DNA of 13,345 bases from Rubripirellula sp. (GCA_029287555.1 JARFQX010000458.1:1-13345), one strand, 5' to 3'; numbered from the stretch's first letter, positions 145-13,345 are shown. Program-made: numbers and translations. The notes: a model not told the origin generated them from the sequence alone.

Positions 145-497
145 AGAGATCTGCTTGATGATCGATAGCGATGCGTGAACGGAAAGATCTGAATAAGGCA
201 CTGGGTCTCTTATGGTCGGACGCGCCCCATGAGATTCGCTGCGAGATTCCGCGCCGAGTGACAACGTTAACCATGGCGGCGGGAGTTGTGCTGCTGGGCT
301 TTGCGATATTGAATGGTTCTGCAATCGCGATAAGCCCGAACTCGAGTGGATTGCGACGAAGCTCAACCGGGCACTTGGGCTCGATACGCAGGGAGATGCT
401 CGATCGTGATCGGGATGCGATAGCGTTTGTTCCAAGAGTAGCGACGAATGTCCGAGAGGGGATCGGGTGAGTTTTCGAGCCCTCCCGCGGTTGCCGC

Positions 498-1376
498 TCA
501 GGCGGAACAACGGGTTCCCGGGCCTACTGCCGGGAAGGGACCGCATGGGATTTCGTGAGCCATCACCTCGCGCGCGGCGACGGGTAGTTGCGGCGCCTGC
601 GAGATGGGCAAGATCGCGTCGTTACCGTGAACGTAATAGGATTCCAGCCGCATTGCCCCGTCATGGTACTCCACCAGCGCCGTGCAGTTTTCGACCCAGT
701 CGCCCGTATTGCAATAAATCATCTCATCCTGATGAAAGAGGTCTGGTGTGTGGATGTGGCCGCAGATGACCCCGCGGCATCCCTGCCGCCGGGCATGTTC
801 GAGTAGCTGCCGCTGAAAATCACTCAGAAAACGGATGAACCTCTTGACGCTACCCTTGATCGAGGCGCAGGTCGCGTAGGGACTGCGTCGAGGGTCTCGC
901 CGCAATCGGCTACAGTACCAATCGAGCGATAACATTGGATCGTAAATGTAGGAGCTTGCGTGGGACAGCCACTGGGCTCGCGTTTCAAACACGTCGAATT
1001 CATCGCCGTGCGTGACGAGGAATCGCCTGCCGTCCAAGGCCTCGAAGACAAATTCATCAGCGATGTGAATATTCAAAGCGGCTACTTGTAACACGCCACG
1101 GACCTCATCCATTCGCAAGAATTGATCGTGGTTGCCAGGCGTGTAGAAGACTTGCGTTCCCCGTTCGATCATTGCAAAGAGATGTCGAAGGATCTGGCTA
1201 TTGATGGCGGGCCAACGAAACGAAGACCGAAGCTTCCAACCGTCGATGAAGTCACCAAGGATGTAGATCTTGTCCGGCTCGATGCCACGAAGGAAGTCCA
1301 ACAGAAGATGGGGCTGAGCGAATCGGCAGCCCAAATGAACGTCGCTTATGAAAAGCGTGCGTGCTTTGCGTTCCAT
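498..1376 (-). CDS. LpxH-family calcineurin-like metallophosphoesterase, PlcP-like (candidate phospholipase C supplying diacylglycerol for lipid remodelling)
   Basis: ORF 498..1385. All metallophosphoesterase motifs are present in order: SDVHLG (DxH), LGDFIDGW (GDxxD), PGNHD (GNHD), THGDEFD (H), CGHIHTP (GHxH). GNHD rather than the GNRD of E. coli LpxH, together with the GT4 gene immediately upstream in the same operon, matches the plcP-agt arrangement. I prefer the ATG at 1376 (MERKARTLFISDVHLG) over the GTG at 1385. 292 aa. Confidence 0.8.
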   Translation of the reverse strand: MERKARTLFISDVHLGCRFAQPHLLLDFLRGIEPDKIYILGDFIDGWKLRSSFRWPAINSQILRHLFAMIERGTQVFYTPGNHDQFLRMDEVRGVLQVAALNIHIADEFVFEALDGRRFLVTHGDEFDVFETRAQWLSHASSYIYDPMLSLDWYCSRLRRDPRRSPYATCASIKGSVKRFIRFLSDFQRQLLEHARRQGCRGVICGHIHTPDLFHQDEMIYCNTGDWVENCTALVEYHDGAMRLESYYVHGNDAILPISQAPQLPVAAREVMAHEIPCGPFPAVGPGTRCSA

Positions 1377-1454
1377 CACAGTCACCCATTATCCTTCTTT
1401 CATCGGCCAACGGTCGGGTTGTTTGCTCAGCCGGTCTGAACCGGAAGCGGAGCG

Positions 1455-2726
1455 TCAGGCTTGGCTCGGCTGAGTCGCCAGCGGCGAGGATGAACTTCGC
1501 CAGCTTCGCTGCAGCCAGGAGGCGCTGCGAAAGGCGAAGACTAAGCTGGATACAGCCAGGGACGAACACCGGGACGCGACGCGACGCTGTTCACGTGCCG
1601 CATCCAATGTTTCCATTGCTTCCTGGTAGCGTCTCCGCACCTCCTCGGTGGAGGCTCGCCACCCACAGCGTTCGACGTGACTCCGCGCGCGAGAACCAAG
1701 CGACCGACGAAGTTCGACGCTACCAAGCAGCTTCGCCAGCGAGGTCTGCGCCGCGTCAACATCTCCAGGACAATAGAGCACGCCGGACTCGCCATCTTGC
1801 ATTAGCGACGGGATTCCACCGGCCGCGGGCGCCAACACCGGTAATCCTGATGCCATCGCTTCCATGACCACATTCCCCATTGTTTCGGTTTCTGATCCGT
1901 ACAAGAACAGATCCGCCGAAGCATATGCCTGCGCAAGCTCCTGTCCTCGCAGGTAGCCGGTGAACGTCGTTTTGCTGCCGGCGAAGCGGCGTTCCAGGCG
2001 GGCGCGATCGGGACCGTCACCCACGATCGCCAGCCTTGCCCCGGGAAACCGCTCGATTACCTTTGCGAGAAAGTCAACGTTCTTTTCAACTGCTAAACGC
2101 GAAACCGTCAGCAACAAGGGCGTATCCGGCTCGCCCGATGTCAGCCGATACCGCATCGACTCGGACTGGCGCTTCGGTTGGAACAGTTGTGTATCGACAG
2201 CGGGTGGCCAGGTCCGAACGCGCTCAAAGCCGCGCTGCTCCAATTCCGCTCGCAAAATGGATGAAACTGTCAGGTTCACGTCGGCACAGTTGTGGTAGCT
2301 TCGAGTCAAATGCCACAGCGGGCGCGACAGCTTGCGAAGCACGGGATACTGTTTGACGAATTCACCGTACAACGTGTGAAAGGAAAAGACTGTCGGAATC
2401 GATATTCTGTGCCGTGCCAGAACGTCATGGCAGCGAAAGCCGAAGGCGAACGGATTCAGGAAATGGATCACATCTGGCGCAAACTCCCGGATTACCTCGA
2501 TAAGTCGCTCCGACGGCACGCCAATCCGATACTCGGGATAGGCGACGCACGGGAAGCTGGGAAACGAAACCGTGCGAATGGATGGGTGTTGGCAATCCTC
2601 GGCGTGGGGGCAAAAGACAACCACCTCATCACCAGCTTCGGAAAGATGTTCCAGCAGTCGCATCGTTCGCATCACGACCCCGTCAATCTTCGGCAGAAAG
2701 ACTTCCGCGATTATCGCGACTCGCAT
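1455..2726 (-). CDS. GT4 (GT-B fold) glycosyltransferase, SqdX/Agt-like; candidate diacylglycerol glycosyltransferase
   Basis: ORF 1455..2750. The N-terminus MRVAIIAEVFLPKIDGVVMRT is the typical SqdX/SQD2-type GT4 start. An EX7E motif sits in GSETETMGNVVMEAMASGLPVL. The ATG at 2726 is preceded by AGAGGAGA with an 8-nt spacer, so I prefer it to the GTG at 2750. 423 aa, with a ~50-aa tail beyond the expected fold. Confidence 0.85.
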   Translation of the reverse strand: MRVAIIAEVFLPKIDGVVMRTMRLLEHLSEAGDEVVVFCPHAEDCQHPSIRTVSFPSFPCVAYPEYRIGVPSERLIEVIREFAPDVIHFLNPFAFGFRCHDVLARHRISIPTVFSFHTLYGEFVKQYPVLRKLSRPLWHLTRSYHNCADVNLTVSSILRAELEQRGFERVRTWPPAVDTQLFQPKRQSESMRYRLTSGEPDTPLLLTVSRLAVEKNVDFLAKVIERFPGARLAIVGDGPDRARLERRFAGSKTTFTGYLRGQELAQAYASADLFLYGSETETMGNVVMEAMASGLPVLAPAAGGIPSLMQDGESGVLYCPGDVDAAQTSLAKLLGSVELRRSLGSRARSHVERCGWRASTEEVRRRYQEAMETLDAAREQRRVASRCSSLAVSSLVFAFRSASWLQRSWRSSSSPLATQPSQA

Positions 2727-2734
2727 GACTTGAT

Positions 2735-2739
2735 CTCCT
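2735..2739 (-). promoter_or_regulatory. Shine-Dalgarno-like AGGAG for the GT4 gene
   Basis: The minus-strand sequence reads gattAGAGGAGAtcaagtcATG. The AGGAG core lies 8 nt upstream of the ATG at 2726. Confidence 0.5.
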
Positions 2740-2846
2740 CTAATCCGCACGTTGGCGCGAGTCGTTCGCCGCCCTGGGGAAGCGTTGAGCGGACGGACGT
2801 GCCATCCAGCAGCCCATCGAAGCTCTGTCAGCAGATGCCGTTTGTC

Positions 2847-3668
2847 TCATCGAGGCTTCCGGGCGACGGCGATGACGATGCTGTGGTGATCCGAGACTGG
2901 AAAAACCAGGGTGTTCAGGAATTGGCGAGTCAACCAGCCTGCCCGCTGGAGCCCCAGTTCTTCGACGAATGGCGTCAGCCAGCCGCCGTGATAGGCAAAC
3001 TCCATGAACCCGTCGAAATGCTCGAACTTGAGTTCTGGCTCGAAGGTCTCGGTTATCTCCGACTCGAATCCCCCATCCTCGAATCGGCGCTTGACTTCCT
3101 GTTCGTCTTCCGGCGTTAGTAGGTTGCCTTCCGCCGAAACGCCCCTTCGGTTGAACAGTGCCTGCAGGACACGAGACTTGGCAATTCTCTGCAGCGCCGG
3201 ATAGCCCCGGCTTGTCCCGCCAACGAACGACCAATAGCCGCCGGGCTCCAAGTGGTCCCAAATTTTGGGTGCCAAAGTCTGCATCGGAACGAATCCGGTT
3301 ACGAAATGCGTGCAGATCATACCGAACGCCTGTCCGGCGAAATGAATTTCAAAATTCGCGGCATCATCGACCGCCGTGGCGATCTCCGGGATACGCTCCC
3401 GGGCGATCTCGACCATCTGTTTAGAAATATCTAGCCCGGAGGGAACGACATCCCGATCGGTCGATTGAATCAATCGCTCTAGGAACAGCCCCGTGCCTAC
3501 ACCAAGATCCAAGACACGGAGTGGTGGCAGGCCCGCTTTGAGAAGGTCGAGATCATCGAGCTGCCGAAGCGACGCTGCGATGGTCCGCTGAATCACGTCC
3601 TGAGGATCAACGTCATAATGCTTCGCAATGACTTCATCGTATTGCCTTTGAATGACTTCCTTGTGCAT
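2847..3668 (-). CDS. class I SAM-dependent methyltransferase (substrate unknown; candidate head-group N- or O-methyltransferase)
   Basis: 273-aa ORF starting at the ATG at 3668. Motif I VLDLGVGTG (3489-3515) has the usual acidic and loop context (LRVLDLGVGTGLFLERL). Later segments fit motifs II/III (IATAVDDAANF, FGMICTHF). It is the first gene of the leftward operon. Confidence 0.85.
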   Translation of the reverse strand: MHKEVIQRQYDEVIAKHYDVDPQDVIQRTIAASLRQLDDLDLLKAGLPPLRVLDLGVGTGLFLERLIQSTDRDVVPSGLDISKQMVEIARERIPEIATAVDDAANFEIHFAGQAFGMICTHFVTGFVPMQTLAPKIWDHLEPGGYWSFVGGTSRGYPALQRIAKSRVLQALFNRRGVSAEGNLLTPEDEQEVKRRFEDGGFESEITETFEPELKFEHFDGFMEFAYHGGWLTPFVEELGLQRAGWLTRQFLNTLVFPVSDHHSIVIAVARKPR

Positions 3669-3864
3669 GTCGATCCCAGTTGTCCCATCGAGGAACGAAA
3701 GTTCTAGCGAAGCCTGAGTGATTCCGTGTCAAGTCTCGCTCGCCGGGAAGCTGGCAGCGGTTAGTCGCAAAACTCCGAGCCGCTATCAACTAATGGAATC
3801 ACCCGGTCCACTTTGCCAACGGCCGGAACGATACACACGTTATGTGAGGACTACGCGAGAGAAC

Positions 3865-3890
3865 TTGTGACGATTTGATAAATACTGACA
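3865..3890. repeat. three 10-bp-phased yTGnnA hexamers in the most AT-rich patch of the divergent control region
   Basis: TTGTGA (3865-3870), TTGATA (3875-3880) and CTGACA (3885-3890). The opposite strand reads TGTCAG-tatt-TATCAA-atcg-TCACAA. The site lies about 190-200 bp from both divergent start codons. Its function is unproven. Confidence 0.25.
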
Positions 3891-3954
3891 CGTTTTCCCG
3901 GATGTGAATTGCGAGCAAGAGGGAAGCTGATAAAGTTCTCGGCGCCGTGGACAA

Positions 3955-3980
3955 GGCAAACTTGCATTGGCAAGTTCGCC
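3955..3980. promoter_or_regulatory. 26-bp imperfect inverted repeat (candidate operator or 5'-UTR hairpin) upstream of the GMC gene
   Basis: GGCAAACTTGC-ATTG-GCAAGTTCGCC. 10 of 11 arm positions are complementary (one A/C mismatch) around a 4-nt centre. It lies ~100 bp upstream of the ATG at 4079. Confidence 0.35.
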
Positions 3981-4078
3981 TCGCCTGATCGAAAGGAATG
4001 TTATGTGTGCGAAGCGGTTTGTTGCCGCTTTGGGAATGCTGAAGGCGTCGTAACAATCGGCCAACAGGACGTGTCCCG

Positions 4079-5662
4079 ATGTCGAGTCTCTTACAACCTG
4101 GTGAGAAACGGGCGAACGATTCAAACACGCGTGGCGGCGAACCGTTCACGGCCCTCCCGCCCCCACCCGATTCCGAATGTCGCTTTGACGTGATTGTGAT
4201 TGGAAGCGGGGCTGGTGGCGCGGTGTTCGCGTGGAAGTGCGCGATGTCAGGCAAACACGTGTTATTGATCGAACGGGCCAGATCGCTTGGTTCACTTCCG
4301 CGTGACGAACTGTCCACACTCGTCGAAAAGCGTCCCTACGATAATCGCACCATCGATTTAAACGGGAAGAGCCAGCGTCTTTACATCGGCGGCACCATCG
4401 GGGGCAGCACGTCGCTCTACGGAGCGGCGTTGCTGAGACCAAGTCTCGATGACTTTCATCCGGGCCGCTACTACAGCCATCGCTTGCCCAAGTATCGATG
4501 GGACTGGCCGATCGACTACGAAGCACTGGCTTCGCATTATGACCGGGCGGAGCAACTTTTCGGTGTAACAAACCCGGCTAGCGAGGACTTTGACCCACTT
4601 CAGTCTCCCGGAACGCAGCTCAACGGCGAGCCGATTCCCCTCGCTCCGATCAATCGCCACCTGGTTGCTTCGAGTCGTTCCGCAGGATGGAAGCCGTTTC
4701 GCTTGCCGCTGGCGATCAACGGAAAGACATGTCTTCGCTGCGCCGCCTGTGCTGGCTACGTCTGCCCGAACGGTTCTCGCCGAAGCGGCGCGGATCTGTT
4801 GCGAGACGCAACCGCGGGCGATGGTTCGCTGCATCTCATCGAGGGCACCGAAACTTTGGAGTTTCGCCGGGGACTCGATGGGGCAGTCACATCGGTACTT
4901 ACACATGGCGAGAGCGATGGAGTGCGCCGGGAGTTTTATGCCAAGCGTTACGTCCTGGCCGCCGGCGCACTCGGTTCCGCCGCGGTCTTGTTGCGATCCG
5001 GGATTGGTGGTCAACACGTCGGGCGCAACTACATGTTCCACTATTCGCCCATTGCTGTCGGGCTATTTCCCTCGCCGACCGAGGCTGATCGCACCTTCGT
5101 GAAGCAGATTGGTTTCGCGGACCATTACTTCGGCACACCCGATTGCCGCGAAAAGATCGGCATCATTCAGTCGCTTCCGGCTCCGGGATTGATGATGATG
5201 CGGAAGAACGGCTCGCGTGGAGTCCCTCGAGCCATCCTCAAGGTTCTCCGCCGGCGCATGCTACCGTTGCTGGGCATCGTCGAGGACCTTCCCGATCCAC
5301 GTAATCGCATCGTCATTGACGGCAGGCGAATAGCTTTGCGTCATCGTTTCAGCGAGTTTGACCGCGCGCGCGGGCGAGCCCTTGCGAAACAAATGGTGTG
5401 TATCTTGAAGCAAGCCGGAGCCGTCCATTGCCTCGTCCGCCAGAGCACTTCCAGCGACCACGTCGCTCACCAATGCGGATCCCTTCCCATGGCCGCGAAG
5501 CGAGAACACGGTGTCGTTAGCCGCGATTGCCGCGTCTATGGGGCGCCAAATCTGTTTGTCGTCGACGGCAGTGTTCTACCCATGTCACTTGGGGTCGGCC
5601 CCGCGCTGACAATCATGGCCAATAGCTTGCGAGTCGCCGATCAGGTTGTCTCGGAATGTTGA
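4079..5662 (+). CDS. GMC-family FAD-dependent oxidoreductase (gluconate-2-dehydrogenase flavoprotein-like subgroup)
   Basis: 527 aa. The N-terminal FAD Rossmann motif is FDVIVIGSGAGGAVFA...LLIERA. The GMC C-terminal signature is HQCGSLPM...NLFVVDGSVLPMSLGVGPALTIMANSLRVADQV. An internal Cys-rich motif CLRCAACAGYVC is present. Confidence 0.9.
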   Translation: MSSLLQPGEKRANDSNTRGGEPFTALPPPPDSECRFDVIVIGSGAGGAVFAWKCAMSGKHVLLIERARSLGSLPRDELSTLVEKRPYDNRTIDLNGKSQRLYIGGTIGGSTSLYGAALLRPSLDDFHPGRYYSHRLPKYRWDWPIDYEALASHYDRAEQLFGVTNPASEDFDPLQSPGTQLNGEPIPLAPINRHLVASSRSAGWKPFRLPLAINGKTCLRCAACAGYVCPNGSRRSGADLLRDATAGDGSLHLIEGTETLEFRRGLDGAVTSVLTHGESDGVRREFYAKRYVLAAGALGSAAVLLRSGIGGQHVGRNYMFHYSPIAVGLFPSPTEADRTFVKQIGFADHYFGTPDCREKIGIIQSLPAPGLMMMRKNGSRGVPRAILKVLRRRMLPLLGIVEDLPDPRNRIVIDGRRIALRHRFSEFDRARGRALAKQMVCILKQAGAVHCLVRQSTSSDHVAHQCGSLPMAAKREHGVVSRDCRVYGAPNLFVVDGSVLPMSLGVGPALTIMANSLRVADQVVSEC

Positions 5663-5687
5663 TTCTCCAACTTCGAAAGTCGGGTGT

Positions 5688-6605
5688 ATGGTGCGAGTCA
5701 AGATTGAAGAACTCTCGCAGGCGAAACAAATTCACGGCGGGCTGGTTCAGCTTTGCGCCGCCTCCCTTGGTGTTCGCCTCGCCCGCGTTCCGATTCCAAC
5801 GCGGCGGCTGCGACGACACGTGTTTAGCCGGATCTACGGCGATAAATATCCCGCCCTTTGCGAAGCCGATTTGGAGAAGCCGCTGCACGACTACCGCTCC
5901 ATCAACGAACTCTTCACTCGCGGGATCCGCGCGGACCGTCGCCCCATGCCCGAAGGCTCCAATCAACTAATCTGTCCCTGCGATTGCACCGTCCAGGACT
6001 CCGGTACCTTGGAACGATCGCTCGTTCTAAACGCCAAAGGAATCTCCTATTCCCTCGCGTCCCTGTTAGCGACTGACCAAGTTCAATCGTTTTCGGGCGG
6101 GCAGTACGCCGTGCTGTTTCTTTCCCCGAGTGATTGTCACCGTGTGTTTTGTCCCACCGAATCGGAACTTGTCGAGATCACGCACGTCCCCGGCCGCCGT
6201 CTGCTGGTGCACCCACCCTATCAACGGAAAGAATATCCGGTCTTCACGCTCAACGAACGTGTGGTGATGCAACTGCGCAGTCCGCGCGGATCGATCGCCT
6301 TGGTGATGATTGCGGGCTGGGGTGTAGGCAACATCACGTATCGGTTTGCCTACGGACCGCGAAAGCGCTCCTATCGGTTGTCTCGCTACGTTTGCGAGCC
6401 GTCGGAACGATTCCAGCGTGGTGACTGGCTGGCGACCTTTGAATTGGGTTCGACCGTGATTCTGGCCATCGAGCCAACGGTGTGCGACTCGCTGGGCCTC
6501 GTTCCGGGCAAGACGCTTCGCTATGGAGAGTCACTGGCCCCGCTCCGATCGTCCTCATCAAAGCCTGTGTCCACGAACACGTTGACATCGAAGGGGAAGT
6601 CATGA
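5688..6605 (+). CDS. psd: phosphatidylserine decarboxylase-family pyruvoyl proenzyme
   Basis: Collinear with E. coli Psd: YRSINELFTRGIRADRRP (cf. YRTFNEFFVRPLR..RP), ICPCDCTV (cf. PADG), FLSPSDCHRVFCP (cf. YLSPRDYHRVHMP), FTLNERVV, and the self-cleavage motif FELGSTVIL (LGST at 6444-6455). I prefer the ATG at 5688 to the TTG at 5646, which would overlap the GMC stop. 305 aa. Confidence 0.85.
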   Translation: MVRVKIEELSQAKQIHGGLVQLCAASLGVRLARVPIPTRRLRRHVFSRIYGDKYPALCEADLEKPLHDYRSINELFTRGIRADRRPMPEGSNQLICPCDCTVQDSGTLERSLVLNAKGISYSLASLLATDQVQSFSGGQYAVLFLSPSDCHRVFCPTESELVEITHVPGRRLLVHPPYQRKEYPVFTLNERVVMQLRSPRGSIALVMIAGWGVGNITYRFAYGPRKRSYRLSRYVCEPSERFQRGDWLATFELGSTVILAIEPTVCDSLGLVPGKTLRYGESLAPLRSSSSKPVSTNTLTSKGKS

Positions 6606-8266
6606 TGGAAGCAATGAAACAGATTATCATCGGACCACGTTCGCCGCTGGCTCTTCGCTACGCCAAGTACCTAAGCGAAGTCGGCGGTCGGACCGTCACA
6701 CTTGTGGCATTGAGTCCGCTACCGAAGACCGAAGACGGGGATCGCCCATTCCATCTCTCTGCCGAACAGTTTGCAAGTGACACATCGCGGGCTGGCGATG
6801 TTTGCCTTGTTCTCTTCGACGTCCGCCATTGCTGCGACGACGAGACACTCATGCAAGGTGTCGAAGAACACCTGCGGAGGAATCCCGGTGCGCTGCTGTT
6901 TCTGATCAGCAGTGCATCGATTCACAGCGGCGATCTCCGCTGCTCCCGGGCGGAAACAAAGCTTCACGATCGGTTTGGACCGCTTGCGTCGCGGCTCGTT
7001 ACCCTACGCGTGACCCACCAGGTTGGTCCCGAGACGCTGGCATCCGTGATTGACGCGGAAACTCACTCCGCCCGTGGCCGCCGATCGCGCACCTTCACGT
7101 TGCTGGAACCGACCGTCGGCGTCCGAAGCCCGAACCCGCTTGAGGCATTGTCAAGCGACCCGAATGACATCGAGACAACCCGCTCGCGCGGGACCTCCGG
7201 TGCGAGCGGATTCCGATCACTCGGCAAGCTGCTCCCGCGTCCGGGCGCATCGATGCCGGAGACTCTGCGTCCGAACAGCGTCAGCGAATTGCTGACGCTT
7301 TACCATCCCTACAGCTACCAGCACGTGCAGATCGCCGGGTGCAACACGGGCGTCAAGCATTTTGGCTGGGAGTTTCCCGGCAAGACCCTGATCCAAACAA
7401 TCCGAACTGCCAGACGGGCCCGCGTGCGTGGCGACCGACTTGATGTTGACGCCGGACTGACGCTGAAACTGGCAATCGAGTGCCTGCGCCGAGTCGAGAA
7501 GGAGTTCTACGTTGTCCCCAACTACTCCTACATCAGCATGGGGACCATCTTCTTTGTTCCGGTACATGGCTCCGGCAGCGATGTGTCCACGCTGGGCGAA
7601 ACGATCGAAAAGGCACTGCTGTATCTGCCGGACGAGGACCGATTCCTGCGAATCAAACGAGGGGACCCCAATTTTGGTCGCTACATCTACCGGCCTGAAT
7701 CGAAAGCGCTTGTTTTACGCTTGACCTTTCGCATTCGTGATCAAACGCGTTATTTCGTCAAACAATCGACACACGCCACGCCGCGGGCGCGTGAAATCGT
7801 CGATCACTTCAGCGATCCGGAAGCCGTGAACGTTGAAATCCGCAAGTCGAAGGCAGCAGATGATTGTGTCACGATTCGAAAGTACTACGAGCATGACCAG
7901 ATTGCTTCCGGAAAACCGCTCGAGCTTCCCAAGGACTCGCTCGGCCGGCTCTGGGATCGATTGGAGGAAACACCGGTCGTGTCTCACCTCTTCCACGAGT
8001 ACGTACGTCGATTCGGCTATCACGTCGAATTGTTCCTCAGCAAAACCCAATTCGATCGGTTTTGGAAGGCTCATCGAGAGCTTCCGCTCAGGAAGATTCA
8101 ACTGCGTCGCATGAAGCAGGATGGACTGCCTCATTCGCCATGCAGCGACTGCGACCGAATCTCGGCCGACCTGTTCATGAAGCGATCCGACAAGGACCGC
8201 TTCTTAGCCTTCATCGAGCACCACTTGCCAGACGTCCACTTCAATCCCGGGAAGCACAGCCGATGA
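6602..8266 (+). CDS. two-domain protein: degenerate SDR/Rossmann-like N-domain + PCMH-type FAD-oxidase-like (FAD_binding_4 / ALO-DprE1-like) C-domain
   Basis: The start ATG at 6602 overlaps the psd stop (ATGA). N-domain: KQIIIGPRSPLALRYAKYLSEVGGRTVTLVA (beta1-loop-helix pattern), LISSASIHSG...CSRAETK (at the SDR S...YxxxK position, with Y replaced), LVTLRVTHQVGPE. A low-complexity R/S/P/T linker follows (~7064-7261). C-domain: VQIAGCNTGVKHFG (at the GGGHS position), LDVDAGLTLKLAIECL, SMGTIFFVPVHGSGSDVSTLGETI (cf. tvGGaiat.ahGsg..yG), and a C-terminal VHFNPGKH (cf. HWGK of ALO/GULO). This is a motif-level call only. 554 aa. Confidence 0.55.
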   Translation: MMEAMKQIIIGPRSPLALRYAKYLSEVGGRTVTLVALSPLPKTEDGDRPFHLSAEQFASDTSRAGDVCLVLFDVRHCCDDETLMQGVEEHLRRNPGALLFLISSASIHSGDLRCSRAETKLHDRFGPLASRLVTLRVTHQVGPETLASVIDAETHSARGRRSRTFTLLEPTVGVRSPNPLEALSSDPNDIETTRSRGTSGASGFRSLGKLLPRPGASMPETLRPNSVSELLTLYHPYSYQHVQIAGCNTGVKHFGWEFPGKTLIQTIRTARRARVRGDRLDVDAGLTLKLAIECLRRVEKEFYVVPNYSYISMGTIFFVPVHGSGSDVSTLGETIEKALLYLPDEDRFLRIKRGDPNFGRYIYRPESKALVLRLTFRIRDQTRYFVKQSTHATPRAREIVDHFSDPEAVNVEIRKSKAADDCVTIRKYYEHDQIASGKPLELPKDSLGRLWDRLEETPVVSHLFHEYVRRFGYHVELFLSKTQFDRFWKAHRELPLRKIQLRRMKQDGLPHSPCSDCDRISADLFMKRSDKDRFLAFIEHHLPDVHFNPGKHSR

Positions 8267-10419
8267 GGTCATCCACTGTCGCAGATGTCCGAATCGAGGA
8301 CGCGTTCGGTCAGCTGATGGACCGGCAGCTACCCAATCTGTTTCGCTTATACCTCAATCCGATCGTGACGCAGGCGTGTCTTTGCCTCTCGCGGATCGCC
8401 TCCGCAAGCAAGGATGGAGTGCGGAGCAGTGGCGGAACGTATCAGATTTTTCTTGCCAACGGCCACGACGAAGCGTTGAGTGGTGCCATAAAACTGACCC
8501 GATACATCCAGAACCTGCGCCGTCGAGATGCCAAGGTACTCATTCGGGGACCGCAACACCGTATCGCACACTTCGCCTCCACGGTCCTTCCGAGCGGACG
8601 CCGCATATGCTTTGTGCCCGAGGTGATGGAGTGCTTCGACGGCGAGGAAAGCACCAGTGCACCGGATCCCGGGAGTTTCGGCGTTGTCGTTACTTTTGCC
8701 AGCCTCGGGCAGCTAGACAATCAACTTGGCGATAATCAGCTGACGATCTTATCCGTCGGCTTGAGGGATGTCTTCAATGCCGGTGGAGATCTCCCCCGCG
8801 GATGGTCGCCCATCGCTTGTCCCGACGTGATTGTATTCGATGCATCGTGGGTCCACCACGACGTGCCGTTCTCTGCATTTGCAGCCAAGTCCACGCTGCT
8901 TCGACATTGGCGAAAGAGAACCATGTCGATGTTTCACTCAACGACCTTTCAACCGAACACCATTGCCAGTCTTCACTTATTGAATTGCCTTCGTCGCGAT
9001 GCGTGGGCGTTCATGACATCGATGAACCCGAAGCTGGAGCGGATTGAACACGATCGCAGCTATCGATGCAAGGTTTTCAGTTCACTCTACAGCCCTTCGC
9101 TCGCGCGACTCATTCGAACCACCGGCTTCGATCAATCGGAACCGACTGCGACGGGACACAAGATTCGAATCCGAGACAAGACGGTGTTTGACGCCGTCGG
9201 CGGCGTTGCCTGCAGCATCCGAGGACACAACCCGCCATCGTATTTGGACGAGATCAACGCCGTCGAGTCCGCGAATTTGCGTGGACGCCTGCAGTCAAAG
9301 CTTGAACGGCTTGTCGGGCTCGGCCATTTCATCCCAGCCGGGAGCGGCGCCGCGGCGGTCGAAACTGCTCTCAAGGTCGGGCTGGTGAGCCAGACCAGGG
9401 GTGACTATGTGTTGGCGCTGCGAGGCGGATTTGGGGGCAAGACCCTGTTCGCCTTGACTGGTACTGATAGCGACCGGTTAAAGACAAACTTGCAACCTCT
9501 CTACCCCAAAGTGATCTTCGTCGACCCGTATGCGGCCGACAGTCTGGATGCCTTGCGACACGCAATGGATCACTTTCGAGTCGGCATCGTCCAAATGGAA
9601 TTGATCCAGGGAGTCGGTGGCGTCCGCACCATTCCCCGTGCAGTCGTCGATTATGTCCAACAGCGGCGAGAGCGAGACGGCTACTGGTTGTTTGTCGATG
9701 AAGTACAAACCGGCATGTATCGAACTGGAGAGATCACGCTTTCAAAAAGGATGGGTCTTCGCGCCGACTTTTTGACGCTCGGAAAGGGCACCTCCGACAT
9801 GATGTTTCCCTCCGCGCTGGCACTGCATTCGGACGAGGTGGAAAATCGATTGCGTGAACTCGATACCGACCTGGACACGGTGCTCAGGCAACGCCATGAG
9901 CACGCGTGGGGCTACAAGACGATTCTGAACACGCTGCAGTATTGTGAGAAGCGAGAGATCCGAGAACAGGTGTTTGCCGCCGAACAGCTGTTCAGAGAGC
10001 GTTTGCACGGCAAGATCGATTGCCTGCCGAACGTGCGGGAGATTCGAGTGTTTGGCCTGTTGATCGGCATTGAATTGAAGGCAAAACAACCGCTAGCTCG
10101 CTTTGATTCATCTCTCGCCTCACTCTACCTGCTGGAGATGCTTCGTCACCCCCAATTCCCGCTGCTCGCAGGTTTCTGTCAAAACGAACGAAATGTGCTG
10201 AAGTTAACCCCGCCCTTGACGGTCGGCGCGGAGGAGATTCACCACATCTGCGACACCGTCATCGATTCTCTCAGCCGGCCCCTATCGAAGCTTGCGCTGT
10301 CAGGCGTCGGCGCGAAGTTGCGTTGCCACCTGCCCATTCAGGTCCTACGGGCTCGAGCACAACCGATCCTCAAAGTGTCAGCCGCGAACCCATCATCGCC
10401 ACACGATTCTGCGGCGTGA
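8263..10419 (+). CDS. tandem class-III (fold type I) aminotransferase: degenerate N-terminal copy + intact PLP-dependent C-terminal copy
   Basis: The start ATG at 8263 overlaps the upstream stop (ATGA). C-terminal copy: GHNPPSYLDEI, IPAGSGAAAVETALKVG, LFVDEVQTGMYRTGE, FLTLGKGTSDMMFPSA (Schiff-base Lys codon aag at 9784-9786), VREIRVFGLLIGIEL, LKLTPPLTV. N-terminal copy: LYLNPIVTQ, FLANGHDEALSGAIKLTRY, PDVIVFDASWVHHDVPFSAFA, FHSTTFQPNTIA. 718 aa. Confidence 0.8.
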   Translation: MRSSTVADVRIEDAFGQLMDRQLPNLFRLYLNPIVTQACLCLSRIASASKDGVRSSGGTYQIFLANGHDEALSGAIKLTRYIQNLRRRDAKVLIRGPQHRIAHFASTVLPSGRRICFVPEVMECFDGEESTSAPDPGSFGVVVTFASLGQLDNQLGDNQLTILSVGLRDVFNAGGDLPRGWSPIACPDVIVFDASWVHHDVPFSAFAAKSTLLRHWRKRTMSMFHSTTFQPNTIASLHLLNCLRRDAWAFMTSMNPKLERIEHDRSYRCKVFSSLYSPSLARLIRTTGFDQSEPTATGHKIRIRDKTVFDAVGGVACSIRGHNPPSYLDEINAVESANLRGRLQSKLERLVGLGHFIPAGSGAAAVETALKVGLVSQTRGDYVLALRGGFGGKTLFALTGTDSDRLKTNLQPLYPKVIFVDPYAADSLDALRHAMDHFRVGIVQMELIQGVGGVRTIPRAVVDYVQQRRERDGYWLFVDEVQTGMYRTGEITLSKRMGLRADFLTLGKGTSDMMFPSALALHSDEVENRLRELDTDLDTVLRQRHEHAWGYKTILNTLQYCEKREIREQVFAAEQLFRERLHGKIDCLPNVREIRVFGLLIGIELKAKQPLARFDSSLASLYLLEMLRHPQFPLLAGFCQNERNVLKLTPPLTVGAEEIHHICDTVIDSLSRPLSKLALSGVGAKLRCHLPIQVLRARAQPILKVSAANPSSPHDSAA

Positions 10420-10437
10420 TTCCGGCTCAAGATCCGA

Positions 10438-10443
10438 AAGGAG
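10438..10443 (+). promoter_or_regulatory. Shine-Dalgarno AAGGAG for the membrane-protein gene
   Basis: The sequence reads gaAAGGAGaagtccATG, with a 6-nt spacer to the ATG at 10450. Confidence 0.55.
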
Positions 10444-10449
10444 AAGTCC

Positions 10450-10935
10450 ATGGTCCACCCCCTGATGATCGATTTCCAGGAATTGTACCGCCGACACCTC
10501 TGTCGGCATTCTCAGTTTGGTCTCAACGTCTTGCACCTGGTCGCCGTTGTCGGGATCTACCTTTCGCTCTATCGCATCGTATTCTCGCTGCCGGGCTCGA
10601 TGTGGATTCTTGGAGCCGGATTGGCACTCTACCTTGGAATCCTATTGGCAAAGCTGCCCTTTCGGTTGTGGCTGATTAACACGGTCATGGTGCTGTTGTT
10701 GCTGTCCCTTGCCGCAGCTGCTCCAGCATTTCCCATCTGGGGATACGCCCTGCTGATCGTAGTCCTGCACTGGTTCCAGAACTGGTCGCACCGAATCTAC
10801 ACAACGGCGTTCGACATGAGCGCCTACAAGGAAAAATATCCAAAGGGCCTGCCGTTGTTTTTGACCTTATCGTTGTTCGAGCTGCCGATCTTGTTGAACT
10901 ATCTGGCGTTCGACCGAAGAAGCTGGGCATCGTGA
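10450..10935 (+). CDS. small polytopic membrane protein, possibly DUF962/Mpo1-like
   Basis: 161 aa with 4-5 hydrophobic spans (VLHLVAVVGIYLSLY, WILGAGLALYLGILLA, LINTVMVLLLLSLAAAAPAF, IWGYALLIVVL, LPLFLTLSLFELPILLNYLAF). The His pattern YRRH...NVLH and WFQNWSH resembles yeast Mpo1 (YHHNPKNVLIH and IFQFVGH). The resemblance is judged from memory of that sequence and was not computed. Confidence 0.6.
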   Translation: MVHPLMIDFQELYRRHLCRHSQFGLNVLHLVAVVGIYLSLYRIVFSLPGSMWILGAGLALYLGILLAKLPFRLWLINTVMVLLLLSLAAAAPAFPIWGYALLIVVLHWFQNWSHRIYTTAFDMSAYKEKYPKGLPLFLTLSLFELPILLNYLAFDRRSWAS

Positions 10936-11678
10936 TGCTGATCTCAAAATCCAAGCGAGTTAGAAGGACGGGGCCAGATTTTGTTCCGCAGTCGGATCCG
11001 TTTCGGCCGGTACATATTCGCCCGGCGGTTGAACCCGATCCAGGACGAGCGAGGTTGCGAGCACGTTCTGCTTTAGTGTCCGAGGTCGTCGTCTTGCTGC
11101 ACGGATTTGGCGCGCGTCCACTGATGATGCGAGGGATCGAAAGAAAGCTGCGGCAGAACCGATTCGACGTCATCAACTGGGGTTACGCGAGCACGCGTCA
11201 ATCCATAGCCTTCCACAGCGGGAGGCTGCGGGATGCGCTGGTGGGTTGTCGGCTAGTCGTTGATTACGGGCGTGTTCACCTGGTGGGTTACAGCATGGGC
11301 GCGATCATCGCCCGACACGCGGTTGCATCCCACGCGGACTTTCCTCCGGGTCGAATCGTTTTGTTAGCGGCACCCAACCAGGGAACGCACGTTGCCCGCA
11401 CAGCGGCCCGCGTGATCGGCAGGTTCTGTCCCACGCTCAACGACCTGTCCGACGCACGTTTCAGTACGGCGAACGTGATTCACACTCCCCGGGACCGGGA
11501 AATAGGAGTCATCGCCGCGAAGAACGATTGGGTGGTGCCACTATCACACACCCACCTGGCCGACCAACGAGACCACATCGTCGTGCCCGGCGATCACTTA
11601 CGACTACCACTGCTGCGAGAAACCAGTCGCCAAGTCGTAAAATTTCTGCAGAACGGCTCGTTTTCTAGGGCAAGTTGA
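10932..11678 (+). CDS. alpha/beta-fold serine hydrolase (lipase/esterase-like)
   Basis: Oxyanion region VVVLLHGFG, nucleophile elbow HLVGYSMGAII (GxSxG), later AAKNDWVVP (Asp) and VPGDHLRLP (His). The GTG at 10932 / ATG at 10935 overlaps the upstream TGA (10933-10935). A shorter start at the GTG at 11076 (MSEVVVLLHGFG) is also possible, because the first ~48 aa are a basic, Pro-rich extension with no signal-peptide character. Confidence 0.8.
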   Translation: MMLISKSKRVRRTGPDFVPQSDPFRPVHIRPAVEPDPGRARLRARSALVSEVVVLLHGFGARPLMMRGIERKLRQNRFDVINWGYASTRQSIAFHSGRLRDALVGCRLVVDYGRVHLVGYSMGAIIARHAVASHADFPPGRIVLLAAPNQGTHVARTAARVIGRFCPTLNDLSDARFSTANVIHTPRDREIGVIAAKNDWVVPLSHTHLADQRDHIVVPGDHLRLPLLRETSRQVVKFLQNGSFSRAS

Positions 11679-11992
11679 AACGGTTTTCCAACTGGGTCGG
11701 CCACTCCGGTGCGCAGGATTGTTCGGTACTGATCTTCGCACCGATTCACCAAGACACATCGCTCCAATCCGAACTCGCATTTCCTTCTATCCAACTCCGT
11801 GCCTCTGCGAGGCTGTGAGCAGGCTCCTTTCAGTAGCGGCGTGCTCCCTGGATCGTCCGGCATCCTGTTCAATGCGCTATACTCGACGGTAAGAGACTTC
11901 GGAAACGGTCAACTCTTCCGCGGATCTTGTCACCGACCGGGTGAGCGGACCGCGACGCTGGAAAGATCAATTCACTGTTGGAACCACTGAAG

Positions 11993-13345
11993 ATGGATGC
12001 TGGACTCTTTGTTACGACCGGTGCTCAGCGACAGGCTCGGCTTTGGATCGTCGTTTTTCTTTCTCTTGTTGCCCTGATACCGACGGGCTGCAGTCGCAAG
12101 CATGAGGTCGACGTCATCTCACCGCAGGAAAGTGGGGTCGTCATATCGGAGATGGAGAGTACTCTGTCGGAAAACGACTGGGGCGGCTGGCGTGGGCCGA
12201 GTGGCGACGGGATCGCCGTGCCGCAAGAGATTGTCACGACGTGGGATGAGACCACCAACGTTCTTTGGCGCGCCGACGTACCGGGACGGGGACACAGTTC
12301 TCCCATCGTGGTTGGTGATTCGGTCTTTCTGGCAACCGCGATTCAGGCCGAGGAAACGCAGTGCGTGATCGCCTACAACCGTGTCGATGGGACGGAACGG
12401 TGGCGCACCGTTCTTCATCGAGGTGGTTTTCCGTCGTCTCGAGAAGTCCATCAGAAGGCCACCAACGCCAACGGCACGATCGCCAGTGATGGACAGCGAC
12501 TATACATCGCGATGCTCAACTCCAAGGCGATCATCGCCTCCGCCCTTGATCTGGACGGTAATCTTTTGTGGCAACAGGAGGTCGGCAAATTCGCTTCCAA
12601 ATTCGGCTACGCACCCTCACCCGTGATCTACAAATCACTCGTTATCTTTGCGGCCGACAATAGCGGGGGTGGGTACCTCGCGGCGGTCGACGGCGCCAGC
12701 GGCAAGGTTGCCTGGCGCGTCTCGCGCGGCCAAGTCGACAGCTACGCCAGCCCGGCGATCGCCAACGTGGGCGGTCGTGACCAGTTGCTGATCAGCGGAT
12801 GCGATGCCGTGACGAGCTACGATCCCGCTACCGGCGAAGAGCTTTGGAGGACGCCCTGCATTGCCGACTCAACGTGCGGAACGATTGTGACCACGACGGA
12901 TCGAATCCTTGCCAGCGGCGGTTTTCCGGAAATGGAAACGGTTTGCCTGTCTGCCGAAGGCGACAAGATCTGGTCCAATTCCGAACAGGTTTATGAACCG
13001 TCGATGATTGTTGTCGGGAACTATGTCGTGGGAGTCAATGATGATGGGATCGCGACGTGCTGGGAGATTGAATCAGGAGAGCGTCAATGGAAGAAACGTT
13101 TGGGCGGAAACTTCAGTGCCTCCCCGGTGTTGGTCGATGACATGGTGATCGTACCGAACCTTGAAGGATCGACATTCGTTTTTCATGCGAGCGAAGAATT
13201 TGACGAGATTGCCGAGAACCGCCTCGGCGACGATGCCTACGCGAGCCCGGCGGTTGCAGGAGGACAAATTTTTCTTCGCATCGGGGTCGGAAAAGGGACC
13301 GACAGGCGCGAGCAACTCGTTTGCATCGGCGAGGTAGCCTCCTGA
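11993..13345 (+). CDS. PQQ-like (BamB-type) beta-propeller repeat lipoprotein
   Basis: From the ATG at 11993 the protein starts MDAGLFVTTGAQRQARLWIVVFLSLVALIPTGCSR, a signal peptide plus a lipobox-like TGC (Cys codon at 12089-12091). Propeller blades recur: NVLWRADVPGRGHSSPIVVGDSVFLAT, GTERWRT, GNLLWQQEVG, GKVAWRV, GEELWRT, GERQWKKRLGGNFSASPVLVD, ASPAVAGGQIFLR. The stop lies at 13343-13345. The TTG at 11978 is a less likely start. Confidence 0.85.
   Translation: MDAGLFVTTGAQRQARLWIVVFLSLVALIPTGCSRKHEVDVISPQESGVVISEMESTLSENDWGGWRGPSGDGIAVPQEIVTTWDETTNVLWRADVPGRGHSSPIVVGDSVFLATAIQAEETQCVIAYNRVDGTERWRTVLHRGGFPSSREVHQKATNANGTIASDGQRLYIAMLNSKAIIASALDLDGNLLWQQEVGKFASKFGYAPSPVIYKSLVIFAADNSGGGYLAAVDGASGKVAWRVSRGQVDSYASPAIANVGGRDQLLISGCDAVTSYDPATGEELWRTPCIADSTCGTIVTTTDRILASGGFPEMETVCLSAEGDKIWSNSEQVYEPSMIVVGNYVVGVNDDGIATCWEIESGERQWKKRLGGNFSASPVLVDDMVIVPNLEGSTFVFHASEEFDEIAENRLGDDAYASPAVAGGQIFLRIGVGKGTDRREQLVCIGEVAS

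Follow-up and report, generated by a model that had tools for sequence, protein, structure and literature searches.

A Planctomycetota-wide gene cluster with a possible role in lipid head-group amination and methylation

We analysed a 13,345-nucleotide stretch of Rubripirellula sp. DNA (GCA_029287555.1 JARFQX010000458.1:1-13345; hereafter the window), in which two diverging operons of nine genes occupy positions 498 to 11,678. Eight of the nine form a conserved unit that recurs across the Planctomycetota. At its centre is a near-invariant core operon encoding a GMC-family flavoprotein, a phosphatidylserine decarboxylase (PSD)-family proenzyme, a second flavoprotein with Rossmann-like and PCMH-type domains, a tandem class-III aminotransferase and a small membrane protein. 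The three accessory genes attached to it encode a methyltransferase, a GT4 glycosyltransferase and a PlcP-like metallophosphoesterase. We tentatively read the cluster, with a confidence slightly short of even, as a pathway for the amination and methylation of lipid head groups.

Conservation of the cluster

Related loci were collected with a degenerate-pattern scan based on the alignment of the second flavoprotein, keeping one genome per species. The scan yielded 78 loci from Pirellulales, Planctomycetaceae, Gemmataceae, Isosphaeraceae, Tepidisphaerales and Candidatus Kuenenia, the Isosphaeraceae carriers including Singulisphaera acidiphila DSM 18658, Singulisphaera sp. GP187, Aquisphaera insulae JC669 and Paludisphaera soli JC670. 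In S. acidiphila DSM 18658 the locus lies at 5,129,368-5,150,366 of NC_019892. Comparison of the window proteins with these loci by tblastn found the flavoprotein, which was the query, in 78 of 78, the aminotransferase in 76, the GMC protein in 75, the PSD in 74 and the membrane protein in 68. The methyltransferase is found in 64 loci, the metallophosphoesterase in 39 and the GT4 gene in 47, always adjoining the methyltransferase; many of the gaps in these counts are contig ends. Because the arrangement recurs in 78 loci at amino-acid identities of 33-58%, it lies far beyond what chance would produce.

For the 42 loci that have 5 kb or more of sequence on each side (the full-flank loci), contig ends matter less, and here all five core genes are present in 40, the methyltransferase likewise in 40, and the GT4 and phosphoesterase genes in 29 each. 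Of the accessory genes, that for the methyltransferase has the tightest link to the core, and not one of the 42 loci lacks all three accessory genes together. The preliminary description had joined the two operons into one system and had taken their separation in related genomes as the outcome that would speak against it; since the accessory genes stay beside the core, the two operons are co-conserved. It had also counted as a member the last gene of the rightward operon, which encodes an alpha/beta hydrolase of 248 amino acids (10932-11678, plus strand; weak PF00561/PF12697 matches at about E 1e-6, with a GYSMG nucleophile motif). Orthologues of this gene occur in 4 of the 78 loci. It is a lineage-specific accessory gene, and the conserved unit comprises eight genes, not nine.

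The accessory genes shift position between lineages and yet remain attached to the core. They diverge upstream of it in Pirellulales, Planctomycetaceae and Kuenenia (phosphoesterase<GT4<methyltransferase< >GMC). In Gemmataceae the methyltransferase and GT4 genes follow the core (methyltransferase>GT4>) and the phosphoesterase gene lies upstream; Isosphaeraceae loci carry methyltransferase<phosphoesterase< downstream of the core and no GT4 gene, and in Tepidisphaerales the accessory genes are again downstream. All-against-all clustering of the neighbourhood open reading frames (ORFs) returned just two further recurrent families, a PAP2 phosphatase (12 loci) and an alpha/beta hydrolase unrelated to that of the window (13 loci), both of which sit between the GT4 and phosphoesterase genes in Planctomycetaceae and Kuenenia loci. 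A GDSL lipase considered as a conserved accessory gene was rejected, as it occurs in one locus only.

The locus scan turned up no homologous loci outside Planctomycetota. A contig titled 'uncultured Chitinophaga sp.' (L013, CAZIGZ010000008.1) carries a full Planctomycetaceae-type cluster in the same gene order; a mistake in binning or labelling is the probable explanation, and not transfer to Bacteroidota. Among MFD long-read metagenome-assembled genomes (MAGs; L054, L055, L059, L070, L073 and L076-L078), core genes appear split into two or three consecutive ORFs (O6 O6; AT AT AT), which look like assembly frameshift errors and not like real gene fission.

Within the window, ORF listing, translation and Pfam/NCBIfam scans locate all nine genes in two operons that diverge exactly as the preliminary description had mapped them. 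The intergenic region between the methyltransferase and GMC starts (3669-4078) measures the 410 bp it had given, and the 4-nt start/stop overlaps that it had described in the rightward operon are seen as ATGA between the PSD and second flavoprotein genes (6602-6605), ATGA between the latter and the aminotransferase gene (8263-8266) and GTGA between the membrane-protein and hydrolase genes (10932-10935). At the GMC-PSD junction the genes either overlap by 17 nt, with a TTG start, or are separated by 25 nt, with an ATG at 5688, and a gap of 30 nt before position 10450 separates the aminotransferase from the membrane-protein gene. That gap (10419-10450) contains AAAGGAGAAG, 6 nt 5' of the membrane-protein ATG, the sole clear Shine-Dalgarno-like sequence among the operon junctions inspected. 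A promoter and terminator scan of the spacer at 3669-4078 found no recognisable sigma-70 promoter or terminator, and an Rfam scan of the window gave no family match. Near-identical copies of the locus are present on metagenome contigs of the European Nucleotide Archive (ENA).

Predicted enzymes of the cluster

All domain calls of the preliminary description were verified except that of DUF962 for the membrane protein, which stayed below threshold. The second flavoprotein (554 amino acids, 6602-8266, plus strand) has no Pfam or NCBIfam match of its own; about 25 of 120 homologues have a recorded PF01565 match, and in all its homologues number in the hundreds, all Planctomycetota wherever the source is named. 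An AlphaFold (AF2) model built on 27 sequences (pLDDT 82, pTM 0.81) comprises a Rossmann-like domain (residues 1-170), a disordered linker and a C-terminal flavoprotein domain (220-554), and together with Foldseek matches it agrees with the Rossmann-plus-PCMH architecture suggested earlier. The C-terminal domain is modelled as a VAO/PCMH flavoprotein of the AldO/aldonolactone oxidase/DprE1 type, showing an FAD-binding PCMH fold and a cap domain, with Foldseek matches to AldO (2vfs, E 1.9e-14), GalLDH (8qnb) and DprE1 (4p8y); a profile search of the PDB gave weak GalLDH matches. In this domain His253 is invariant within the motif GVxHFG, and may correspond to the flavinylation histidine of AldO. 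The N-terminal domain holds the motif 'SSASIHSGD', kept as 'SSxxxHxGD', without a GxxGxxG nucleotide motif, and is reminiscent of a degenerate extended short-chain dehydrogenase/reductase (SDR). One homologue of 888 amino acids (P0015) includes a PSD domain as a fusion partner (PF02666+PF01565), and Planctomycetaceae flavoproteins reach about 740 amino acids, with a longer N-terminal region (L014, 8918-11149).

The GMC-family flavoprotein dehydrogenase (527 amino acids, 4079-5662, plus strand; PF00732 and PF05199) has the FAD motif GSGAGG and the active-site region HVAHQCG. Its nearest solved relatives are the catalytic subunit of FAD-dependent glucose dehydrogenase (FAD-GDH; 8hdd/6a2u_B, E 7e-24), to which it aligns over its full length, and the large subunit of fructose dehydrogenase; weak matches include 6'''-hydroxyparomomycin oxidase (7dve). 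A Cys4 motif, CLRCAACAGYVC, at residues 218-229 (nt 4730-4765) is conserved in 73 orthologues (CLRCxxCAGxxCP) and aligns, though with a different spacing, with the CC...C...CPIGA loop of FAD-GDH, which we take to carry the 3Fe-4S cluster of that enzyme. Since the motif sits in the position of this loop, a dehydrogenase seems likelier than an O2-dependent oxidase, a reading that fits the occurrence of the cluster in anaerobic Kuenenia. No gene for a cytochrome partner subunit was found among the cluster neighbourhood genes.

The PSD-family protein is a divergent pyruvoyl proenzyme of 319 amino acids (5646-6605, plus strand, alternative ATG at 5688), which matches PF02666 with 150 bits and TIGR00163 with 141 bits, above the cut-off of 111.75. 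Its LGST self-cleavage motif (residues 267-270) is conserved in 73 orthologues. The segment 'DCHRVF' aligns with 'DYHRVH' of the Escherichia coli enzyme (7cnw; DCHRVFxP against DYHRVHMP), so that a phenylalanine, kept across the 73 orthologues, replaces the second histidine of DYHRVH. That histidine is a member of the canonical D-H-S processing triad, and the cluster enzyme does not have it. One Planctomycetaceae MAG (L041) encodes a canonical PSD 1 kb downstream of the cluster (14253-15146, plus strand), with DYHRFH, a GGSST site and 364 bits to NF001941. Because this genome carries a canonical enzyme besides, the cluster PSD is predicted to be a specialised paralogue and not the housekeeping enzyme, at least in L041.

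The aminotransferase (718 amino acids, 8263-10419, plus strand) contains in its C-terminal half an intact omega-transaminase domain (PF00202, residues 305-667, 114 bits), with DEVQTG at 479-484 and Lys508; neither Lys508 nor Asp479 varies among 26 sequences. Its relatives in the PDB are AcOAT (1vef), PigE (4ppm) and putrescine aminotransferase, and PigE, putrescine aminotransferase and ArgD are the nearest overall. An AF2 model (pLDDT 86, pTM 0.89) matched PigE and YgjG in Foldseek at a TM of about 0.8, as well as acetylornithine aminotransferase. The tandem character claimed for this protein is supported by its N-terminal half (1-300), whose profile retrieves class-III enzymes from the PDB (2eh6 at E 3.6e-5, PigE at 0.0035, BioA at 0.004), 17 of 19 matches being class-III enzymes in collinear register. 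Here 'FLANSxDEALSGAIKLARY' aligns with the 'FFANSGTEAVEAAIKLARK' motif, and 'PDivvFDesf' with 'PDViAlaKGL', which places an invariant Asp193 at the position of the Schiff-base lysine; a direct hhalign comparison of the N- and C-terminal halves was not significant. Because the N-terminal half is of class III with aspartate for lysine and the C-terminal half is intact, we describe the enzyme as a single-chain pseudo-dimer with one predicted live site.

The last core gene encodes a small hydrophobic protein of 161 amino acids (10450-10935, plus strand), multi-pass by inspection, with the conserved motifs RHLCRHSQFG, Q.W.H, DM and YE.P. It is possibly a remote DUF962/Mpo1-like protein: the window protein matches PF06127 at E 0.15, and 4 of 10 orthologues do so at 0.013-0.41, in the same register. 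A phmmer search against 1.8 billion proteins returned 92 close representative clusters and no bridge to DUF962. On a plasmid-labelled record of Pseudomonas aeruginosa (NZ_CP137508.1; L086, 5656-5973) a protein annotated as 'Mpo1-like' is encoded two genes from the plcP-agt pair; its pairwise E-value with the window protein is 0.055, with the N-terminal motif alone in common, and its location may be a coincidence or may reflect a recurrent association of PlcP with DUF962.

Of the accessory proteins, the methyltransferase (273 amino acids, 2847-3668, minus strand) is a class I S-adenosylmethionine (SAM)-dependent enzyme (PF13649/PF08241) with a family-specific C-terminal extension of about 120 amino acids. 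In the PDB it is weakly similar to LahSB, to the amino-sugar N-methyltransferases CalS10 and DesVI and to a phosphatidylethanolamine (PE) N-methyltransferase.

The glycosyltransferase (423 amino acids, 1455-2726, minus strand) belongs to GT4 and has the two-domain GT-B architecture, confirmed by Pfam (PF13439 with PF00534/PF13692). Its ORF can be extended to a GTG at 2750, the gene call on the ENA contig being 423 amino acids, and the phosphoesterase gene follows 69 nt downstream in the same operon. The best NCBIfam model is that of the N-acetylglucosamine (GlcNAc)-phosphatidylglycerol synthase GpgS (131 bits, cut-off 480), and the Mgs model gives 93 bits. When it and the phosphoesterase were compared by tblastn with plasmid-labelled records, the glycosyltransferase proved 35.5% identical (E 2e-56) to an actinobacterial enzyme from Tsukamurella encoded between menD and menG, presumably the position of the glucuronosyl-diacylglycerol mannosyltransferase MgtA. 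It is 32% identical (E 2e-54) to a Bacillus enzyme whose gene adjoins a PAP2 gene, 34% to a P. aeruginosa enzyme encoded beside plcHR, and 31% (E 3e-34) to the Agt-type enzyme adjacent to plcP in P. aeruginosa. We take these gene positions to be known positions of lipid glycosyltransferases. The protein was previously called Agt-type, an assignment that the 31% identity to the plcP-adjacent enzyme, against 35.5% to the one in the MgtA position, does not favour; we predict a membrane-lipid-acting GT4 that is not specifically Agt-like. An Agt-type reaction would use diacylglycerol as acceptor with UDP-Glc or UDP-GlcA as donor. On a Bacillus mycoides plasmid (NZ_CP036139.1; L085, 4458-6143) a PAP2 gene lies immediately 5' of the GT4 homologue, and the same PAP2-GT4 pairing is found inside the Planctomycetaceae and Kuenenia version of the cluster (L011, 3066-5037).

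The phosphoesterase (295 amino acids, 498-1385, minus strand; PF00149, E 1.2e-13) belongs to the LpxH family and has the metal-binding motifs SDVHLG, GDFIDG, GNHD, HGD and GHIH. It scores 48 bits with the LpxH models of NCBIfam (cut-off 134) and 35.6 bits with the best LpxH in the PDB. The plcP-locus proteins of Sinorhizobium meliloti and P. aeruginosa are far closer, at about 195-200 bits. In S. meliloti the match is an LpxH-like protein (39% identity, E 3e-67), the product of a 281-amino-acid gene about 2.8 kb from an acyl-homoserine-lactone synthase and LuxR-type regulator pair that we assume to be sinI/sinR; in P. aeruginosa it is a protein (40%, E 2e-65) whose gene overlaps a GT4 gene. 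We infer that these are the published PlcPs from their gene context and from PMC9239053, and not by accession. With these identities we accept the earlier assignment of the phosphoesterase as PlcP-type, predicted to cleave PE and phosphatidylcholine (PC) to diacylglycerol; enzymes of this type are induced by phosphate limitation. Phosphoesterases of the window type, with at least 35% identity, occur in 21 loci; in 18 others a more divergent subfamily with generic metallophosphoesterase similarity stands in their place, replacing PlcP in Gemmataceae and Isosphaeraceae. A Roseomonas mucosa plasmid (NZ_CP025062.1; L082, 5992-7566) carries a PlcP-like gene, 38% identical to that of the window, followed directly by a gene for a methyltransferase of 226 amino acids. 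This methyltransferase was rejected as a relative of the cluster enzyme, the SAM motif alone being common to both.

Two further ORFs flank the cluster in the window. Downstream, on the plus strand, a PQQ_2/BamB-like beta-propeller protein identified by Pfam (11978-13345, running past the window end) starts about 300 nt from the cluster and has a lipoprotein-like N-terminus ('...LIPTGCSRK'); with a counterpart in 0 of the 78 related loci, it lies outside the cluster. An ORF of 99 amino acids (171-470, plus strand) has no Pfam match; it is a called gene on the near-identical ENA contigs and is absent from all other related loci.

A possible head-group pathway and its alternatives

The core is tied, through its own genes and its neighbours, to enzyme families of membrane lipids: the PSD family, PlcP-like and PAP2 enzymes, a lipid-type GT4 and an integral membrane protein. 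In the pathway that we propose, a PlcP-type phospholipase C (or PAP2) would free diacylglycerol (DAG) from phospholipid and the GT4 would glycosylate a lipid acceptor, these enzymes together supplying the lipid substrate. The two flavoproteins would then oxidise the end of the head group (-CHOH-CH2OH or -CHOH-CHO(H)/hemiacetal) to an alpha-keto acid, a role assigned to them because hydroxyls of sugars or polyols are what all of their closest relatives of known structure oxidise. The aminotransferase would convert the alpha-keto acid to an alpha-amino acid. The PSD-like enzyme, placed here because its family decarboxylates lipid-bound alpha-amino acids, would strip the carboxylate to leave -CH2NH2, and the methyltransferase would N-methylate the resulting amine. 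The PSD-flavoprotein fusion in P0015 would link the decarboxylation and oxidation steps. The scheme has a step for every conserved enzyme. In sum, an anionic or neutral head group would become a phosphorus-free, positively charged (methyl)ammonium head group.

An amino(glyco)lipid product can reasonably be proposed on these grounds, although the step order, the acceptor lipid and the product structure are far less secure than the general scheme, and any particular structure is much less probable. One such elaboration, which we regard as doubtful, is a previously undescribed class of phosphorus-free cationic lipids, with an N-methylated amino-deoxy-sugar or amino-polyol (aminopentanetetrol-like) head built on the lipid by a neofunctionalised PSD and a pseudo-dimeric aminotransferase, and widespread in Planctomycetota including the anammox bacteria. 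The lipid-renovation interpretation of the preliminary description is thus upheld in part: the co-conserved operons, the PlcP-type enzyme, the Rossmann-plus-PCMH protein and the tandem aminotransferase stand, while the Agt assignment and the membership of the hydrolase do not, and DUF962 is a possible family of the membrane protein.

Several points weigh against the proposed pathway. It is drawn entirely from genes, sequence comparison and predicted structures. The substrates of AldO, FAD-GDH and most class-III aminotransferases are soluble, and what a class-III enzyme usually aminates is an aldehyde or ketone rather than an alpha-keto acid. Because the PSD lacks the second histidine of DYHRVH, its chemistry may differ from that of the family, and the similarity of the methyltransferase is too generic to choose between N-, O- and C-directed transfer. 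Agt is not a nearer relative of the GT4 than other lipid GT4s are; moreover, the GT4 is absent from 13 of the 42 full-flank loci, all of the Isosphaeraceae type, and a glycolipid is therefore not obligatory for the core. With the exception of the small membrane protein, inspection reveals neither a signal peptide nor a membrane segment in any of the gene products. Finally, no 8-mer is common to more than 6 of 32 equivalent divergent regions, and neither a Pho-box-like nor any other shared motif was found in them.

Some of these points feed an alternative that we consider unlikely but serious, namely that the cluster joins two separate neighbours: methyltransferase, GT4 and PlcP would serve phosphate-stress lipid renovation, and the substrate of the core would be a soluble sugar or polyol, or a head group set free. 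Its product could be an N-methylated amino-polyol or compatible solute; in another variant the core would recycle the phospho-alcohols freed by PlcP, with the class-III 'aminotransferase' working as a phospho-lyase, like ethanolamine-phosphate phospho-lyase. The soluble substrates of the nearest solved relatives of the GMC protein, the second flavoprotein and the aminotransferase are what such a division would predict, as is the lack of membrane segments in these three proteins. The aminotransferase also matches the model of the class-III lyase PbfA (E 8e-18), and the enzymes that free phosphate from the phospho-alcohols of PlcP are described as unknown (PMC3972451). Two independent modules, however, would hardly be expected to remain adjacent through several independent rearrangements and phylum-level divergence, nor would a soluble pathway account for the PSD-family enzyme and the conserved membrane protein embedded in the core, translationally coupled or nearly so. 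The tight attachment of the methyltransferase (40 of 42 loci) also fits biosynthesis better than salvage.

A different order of chemistry, modelled on 4-amino-4-deoxy-L-arabinose (L-Ara4N) synthesis by the Arn enzymes, strikes us as improbable. The GMC protein would make a glucuronosyl-lipid, the second flavoprotein would oxidise C4 to set up a beta-keto-acid decarboxylation, the aminotransferase would yield a 4-amino-4-deoxy-pentosyl lipid and the methyltransferase would methylate it. The succession of oxidation, decarboxylation and transamination is established for L-Ara4N, and DprE1 offers a precedent for oxidising a secondary hydroxyl of a lipid-linked sugar. The N-terminal domain of the flavoprotein does resemble extended SDRs of the epimerase/decarboxylase type (UXS/ArnA-like), but it has no nucleotide-binding motif, and the assignment comes from motifs and predicted secondary structure alone. 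Glucuronosyl-DAG, a plausible starting lipid, is made by Agt-type enzymes (PMC3972451, PMC9239053), whereas Isosphaeraceae-type loci have no GT4 at all. Such a route would also leave the invariant PSD-family enzyme without a role, though it is fused to the flavoprotein in some genomes.

That PSD scores above the TIGR00163 cut-off, which would agree with a route to ordinary phospholipids. The glycerol head of phosphatidylglycerol (PG), or of a similar lipid, would be turned by oxidation into a hydroxypyruvate ester and by transamination into phosphatidylserine (PS), PSD would decarboxylate this, and methylation would give monomethyl-PE (MMPE), dimethyl-PE (DMPE) and PC. Planctomycetes do contain PE, MMPE, DMPE and PC (PMC7828035), and the three oxidations would fall to the two conserved flavoproteins, one having to act twice. 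We nevertheless hold this route to be very improbable: it is much longer than the universal PssA/Psd pathway, it leaves unexplained the linkage to a GT4 and to a PlcP-type enzyme that degrades the same phospholipids, and the cluster PSD has an altered motif and in L041 lies beside a canonical one.

A role in lipid A or lipopolysaccharide (LPS), with the phosphoesterase as the planctomycete LpxH, the GT4 as a core glycosyltransferase and the oxidases and aminotransferase making an LPS amino sugar, is hardly credible, as LPS amino-sugar pathways use DegT-type and not class-III aminotransferases. Annotation pipelines do name the phosphoesterase LpxH, LpxH models match it and the essential-gene study of Planctopirus limnophila names lpxABCDKL and not lpxH (PMC10632474), but its scores favour the plcP-locus proteins over the LpxH models (about 195-200 against 48 bits, cut-off 134) and the 78 neighbourhoods contain no further conserved gene of the lpx or LPS-core kind.

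We therefore return to head-group amination and methylation as the working proposal. Planctomycetota are abundant in soils, waters and wastewater, where they include the anammox bacteria, and lipids from these organisms are used as biomarkers. That a lipid locus of eight genes is conserved among them indicates a head group or a remodelling pathway still unassigned in lipidomics. If the proposal is true, it would amount to a new means of producing cationic lipids free of phosphorus, in which the head group is edited in situ, would give the PSD family a second function in bacteria, and would explain how membrane charge or phosphorus demand is adjusted. The question is directly testable, since the cultured Isosphaeraceae strains named above carry the cluster.

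Relation to known systems

Literature searches on this gene set, on planctomycete lipids, on clustered PSD-like enzymes and on aminopentanetetrol found no description of the cluster, with PlcP queries swamped by papain-like 'PLCP' and another query by 'Planctomycetes'. The left half of the locus is a further example of a PlcP-GT4 pair, and for the core operon no described counterpart was found; pieces of its logic occur separately in NeoQ/NeoB-type sugar amination, DprE1/DprE2, the Arn pathway and Psd/PmtA. The aminopentanetetrol head group is tied to Thermodesulfobacterium and Aquificales (PMC5572230); as no homologous loci turned up outside Planctomycetota, a link to it was set aside as an analogy only. 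The OlsG/OlsH/OlsI ornithine-lipid operon of S. acidiphila was also rejected, being another locus with other families.

The closest likeness is to the PlcP-Agt systems of S. meliloti, SAR11, roseobacters, P. aeruginosa and Methylosinus trichosporium, which share with the window a PlcP-like enzyme and a GT4 in one operon. In these systems, characterised in S. meliloti and P. aeruginosa, PlcP releases DAG from PE and PC and the GT4 (Agt) builds glucosyl- or glucuronosyl-DAG (PMC9239053, PMC3972451). Here, by contrast, a methyltransferase gene accompanies the pair, together with an oxidase/decarboxylase/aminotransferase operon of five genes not found in any described plcP-agt locus; the GT4 is not specifically Agt-like, and Gemmataceae and Isosphaeraceae have another metallophosphoesterase.

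The Psd-PmtA route from PS through PE to PC resembles the cluster in placing a PF02666 proenzyme with an LGST motif near a SAM methyltransferase, and in its logic of decarboxylation followed by N-methylation. However, the cluster enzyme has Phe for the second His of DYHRVH and coexists with a canonical PSD in L041, the methyltransferase shares generic class I similarity with PmtA-type enzymes, and the cluster contains no PS synthase. Another parallel is found in aminoglycoside biosynthesis, where the GMC and class-III aminotransferase pairs NeoQ/NeoB and GenQ/GenB1 turn a sugar CH2OH into CH2NH2. The cluster also combines a flavin GMC dehydrogenase with a class-III aminotransferase, but adds a PSD-family enzyme, a second flavoprotein and lipid enzymes, has a tandem pseudo-dimer for its aminotransferase, and lacks aminocyclitol and NDP-sugar genes.

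DprE1/DprE2 provide a precedent for pairing a VAO-type flavoprotein of the DprE1 fold with an SDR-type domain, with DprE1 oxidising the hydroxyl of a lipid-linked sugar at the membrane. In the cluster protein the two parts are fused, the SDR-like part has no nucleotide motif and identity to DprE1 is 10-13%; the keto product would be aminated, not reduced. The Arn pathway likewise arrives by oxidation, decarboxylation and transamination at a cationic amino sugar that lowers the negative charge of the membrane. It does so with UDP-sugars, an NAD-dependent SDR and a DegT-type aminotransferase, so that no family is shared with the cluster bar the distant SDR resemblance. In the gpgSDF system of P. 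aeruginosa (PMC12713373), which makes glucosaminyl-PG (GlcN-PG), a GT4 also acts on a membrane lipid to give a cationic amino-sugar head. GpgS is not an orthologue of the window GT4 (131 bits against a cut-off of 480), and the cluster has neither a deacetylase nor a flippase; the amine of the gpgSDF product comes from GlcNAc, whereas that of the planctomycete lipid would be introduced by transamination on the lipid itself.

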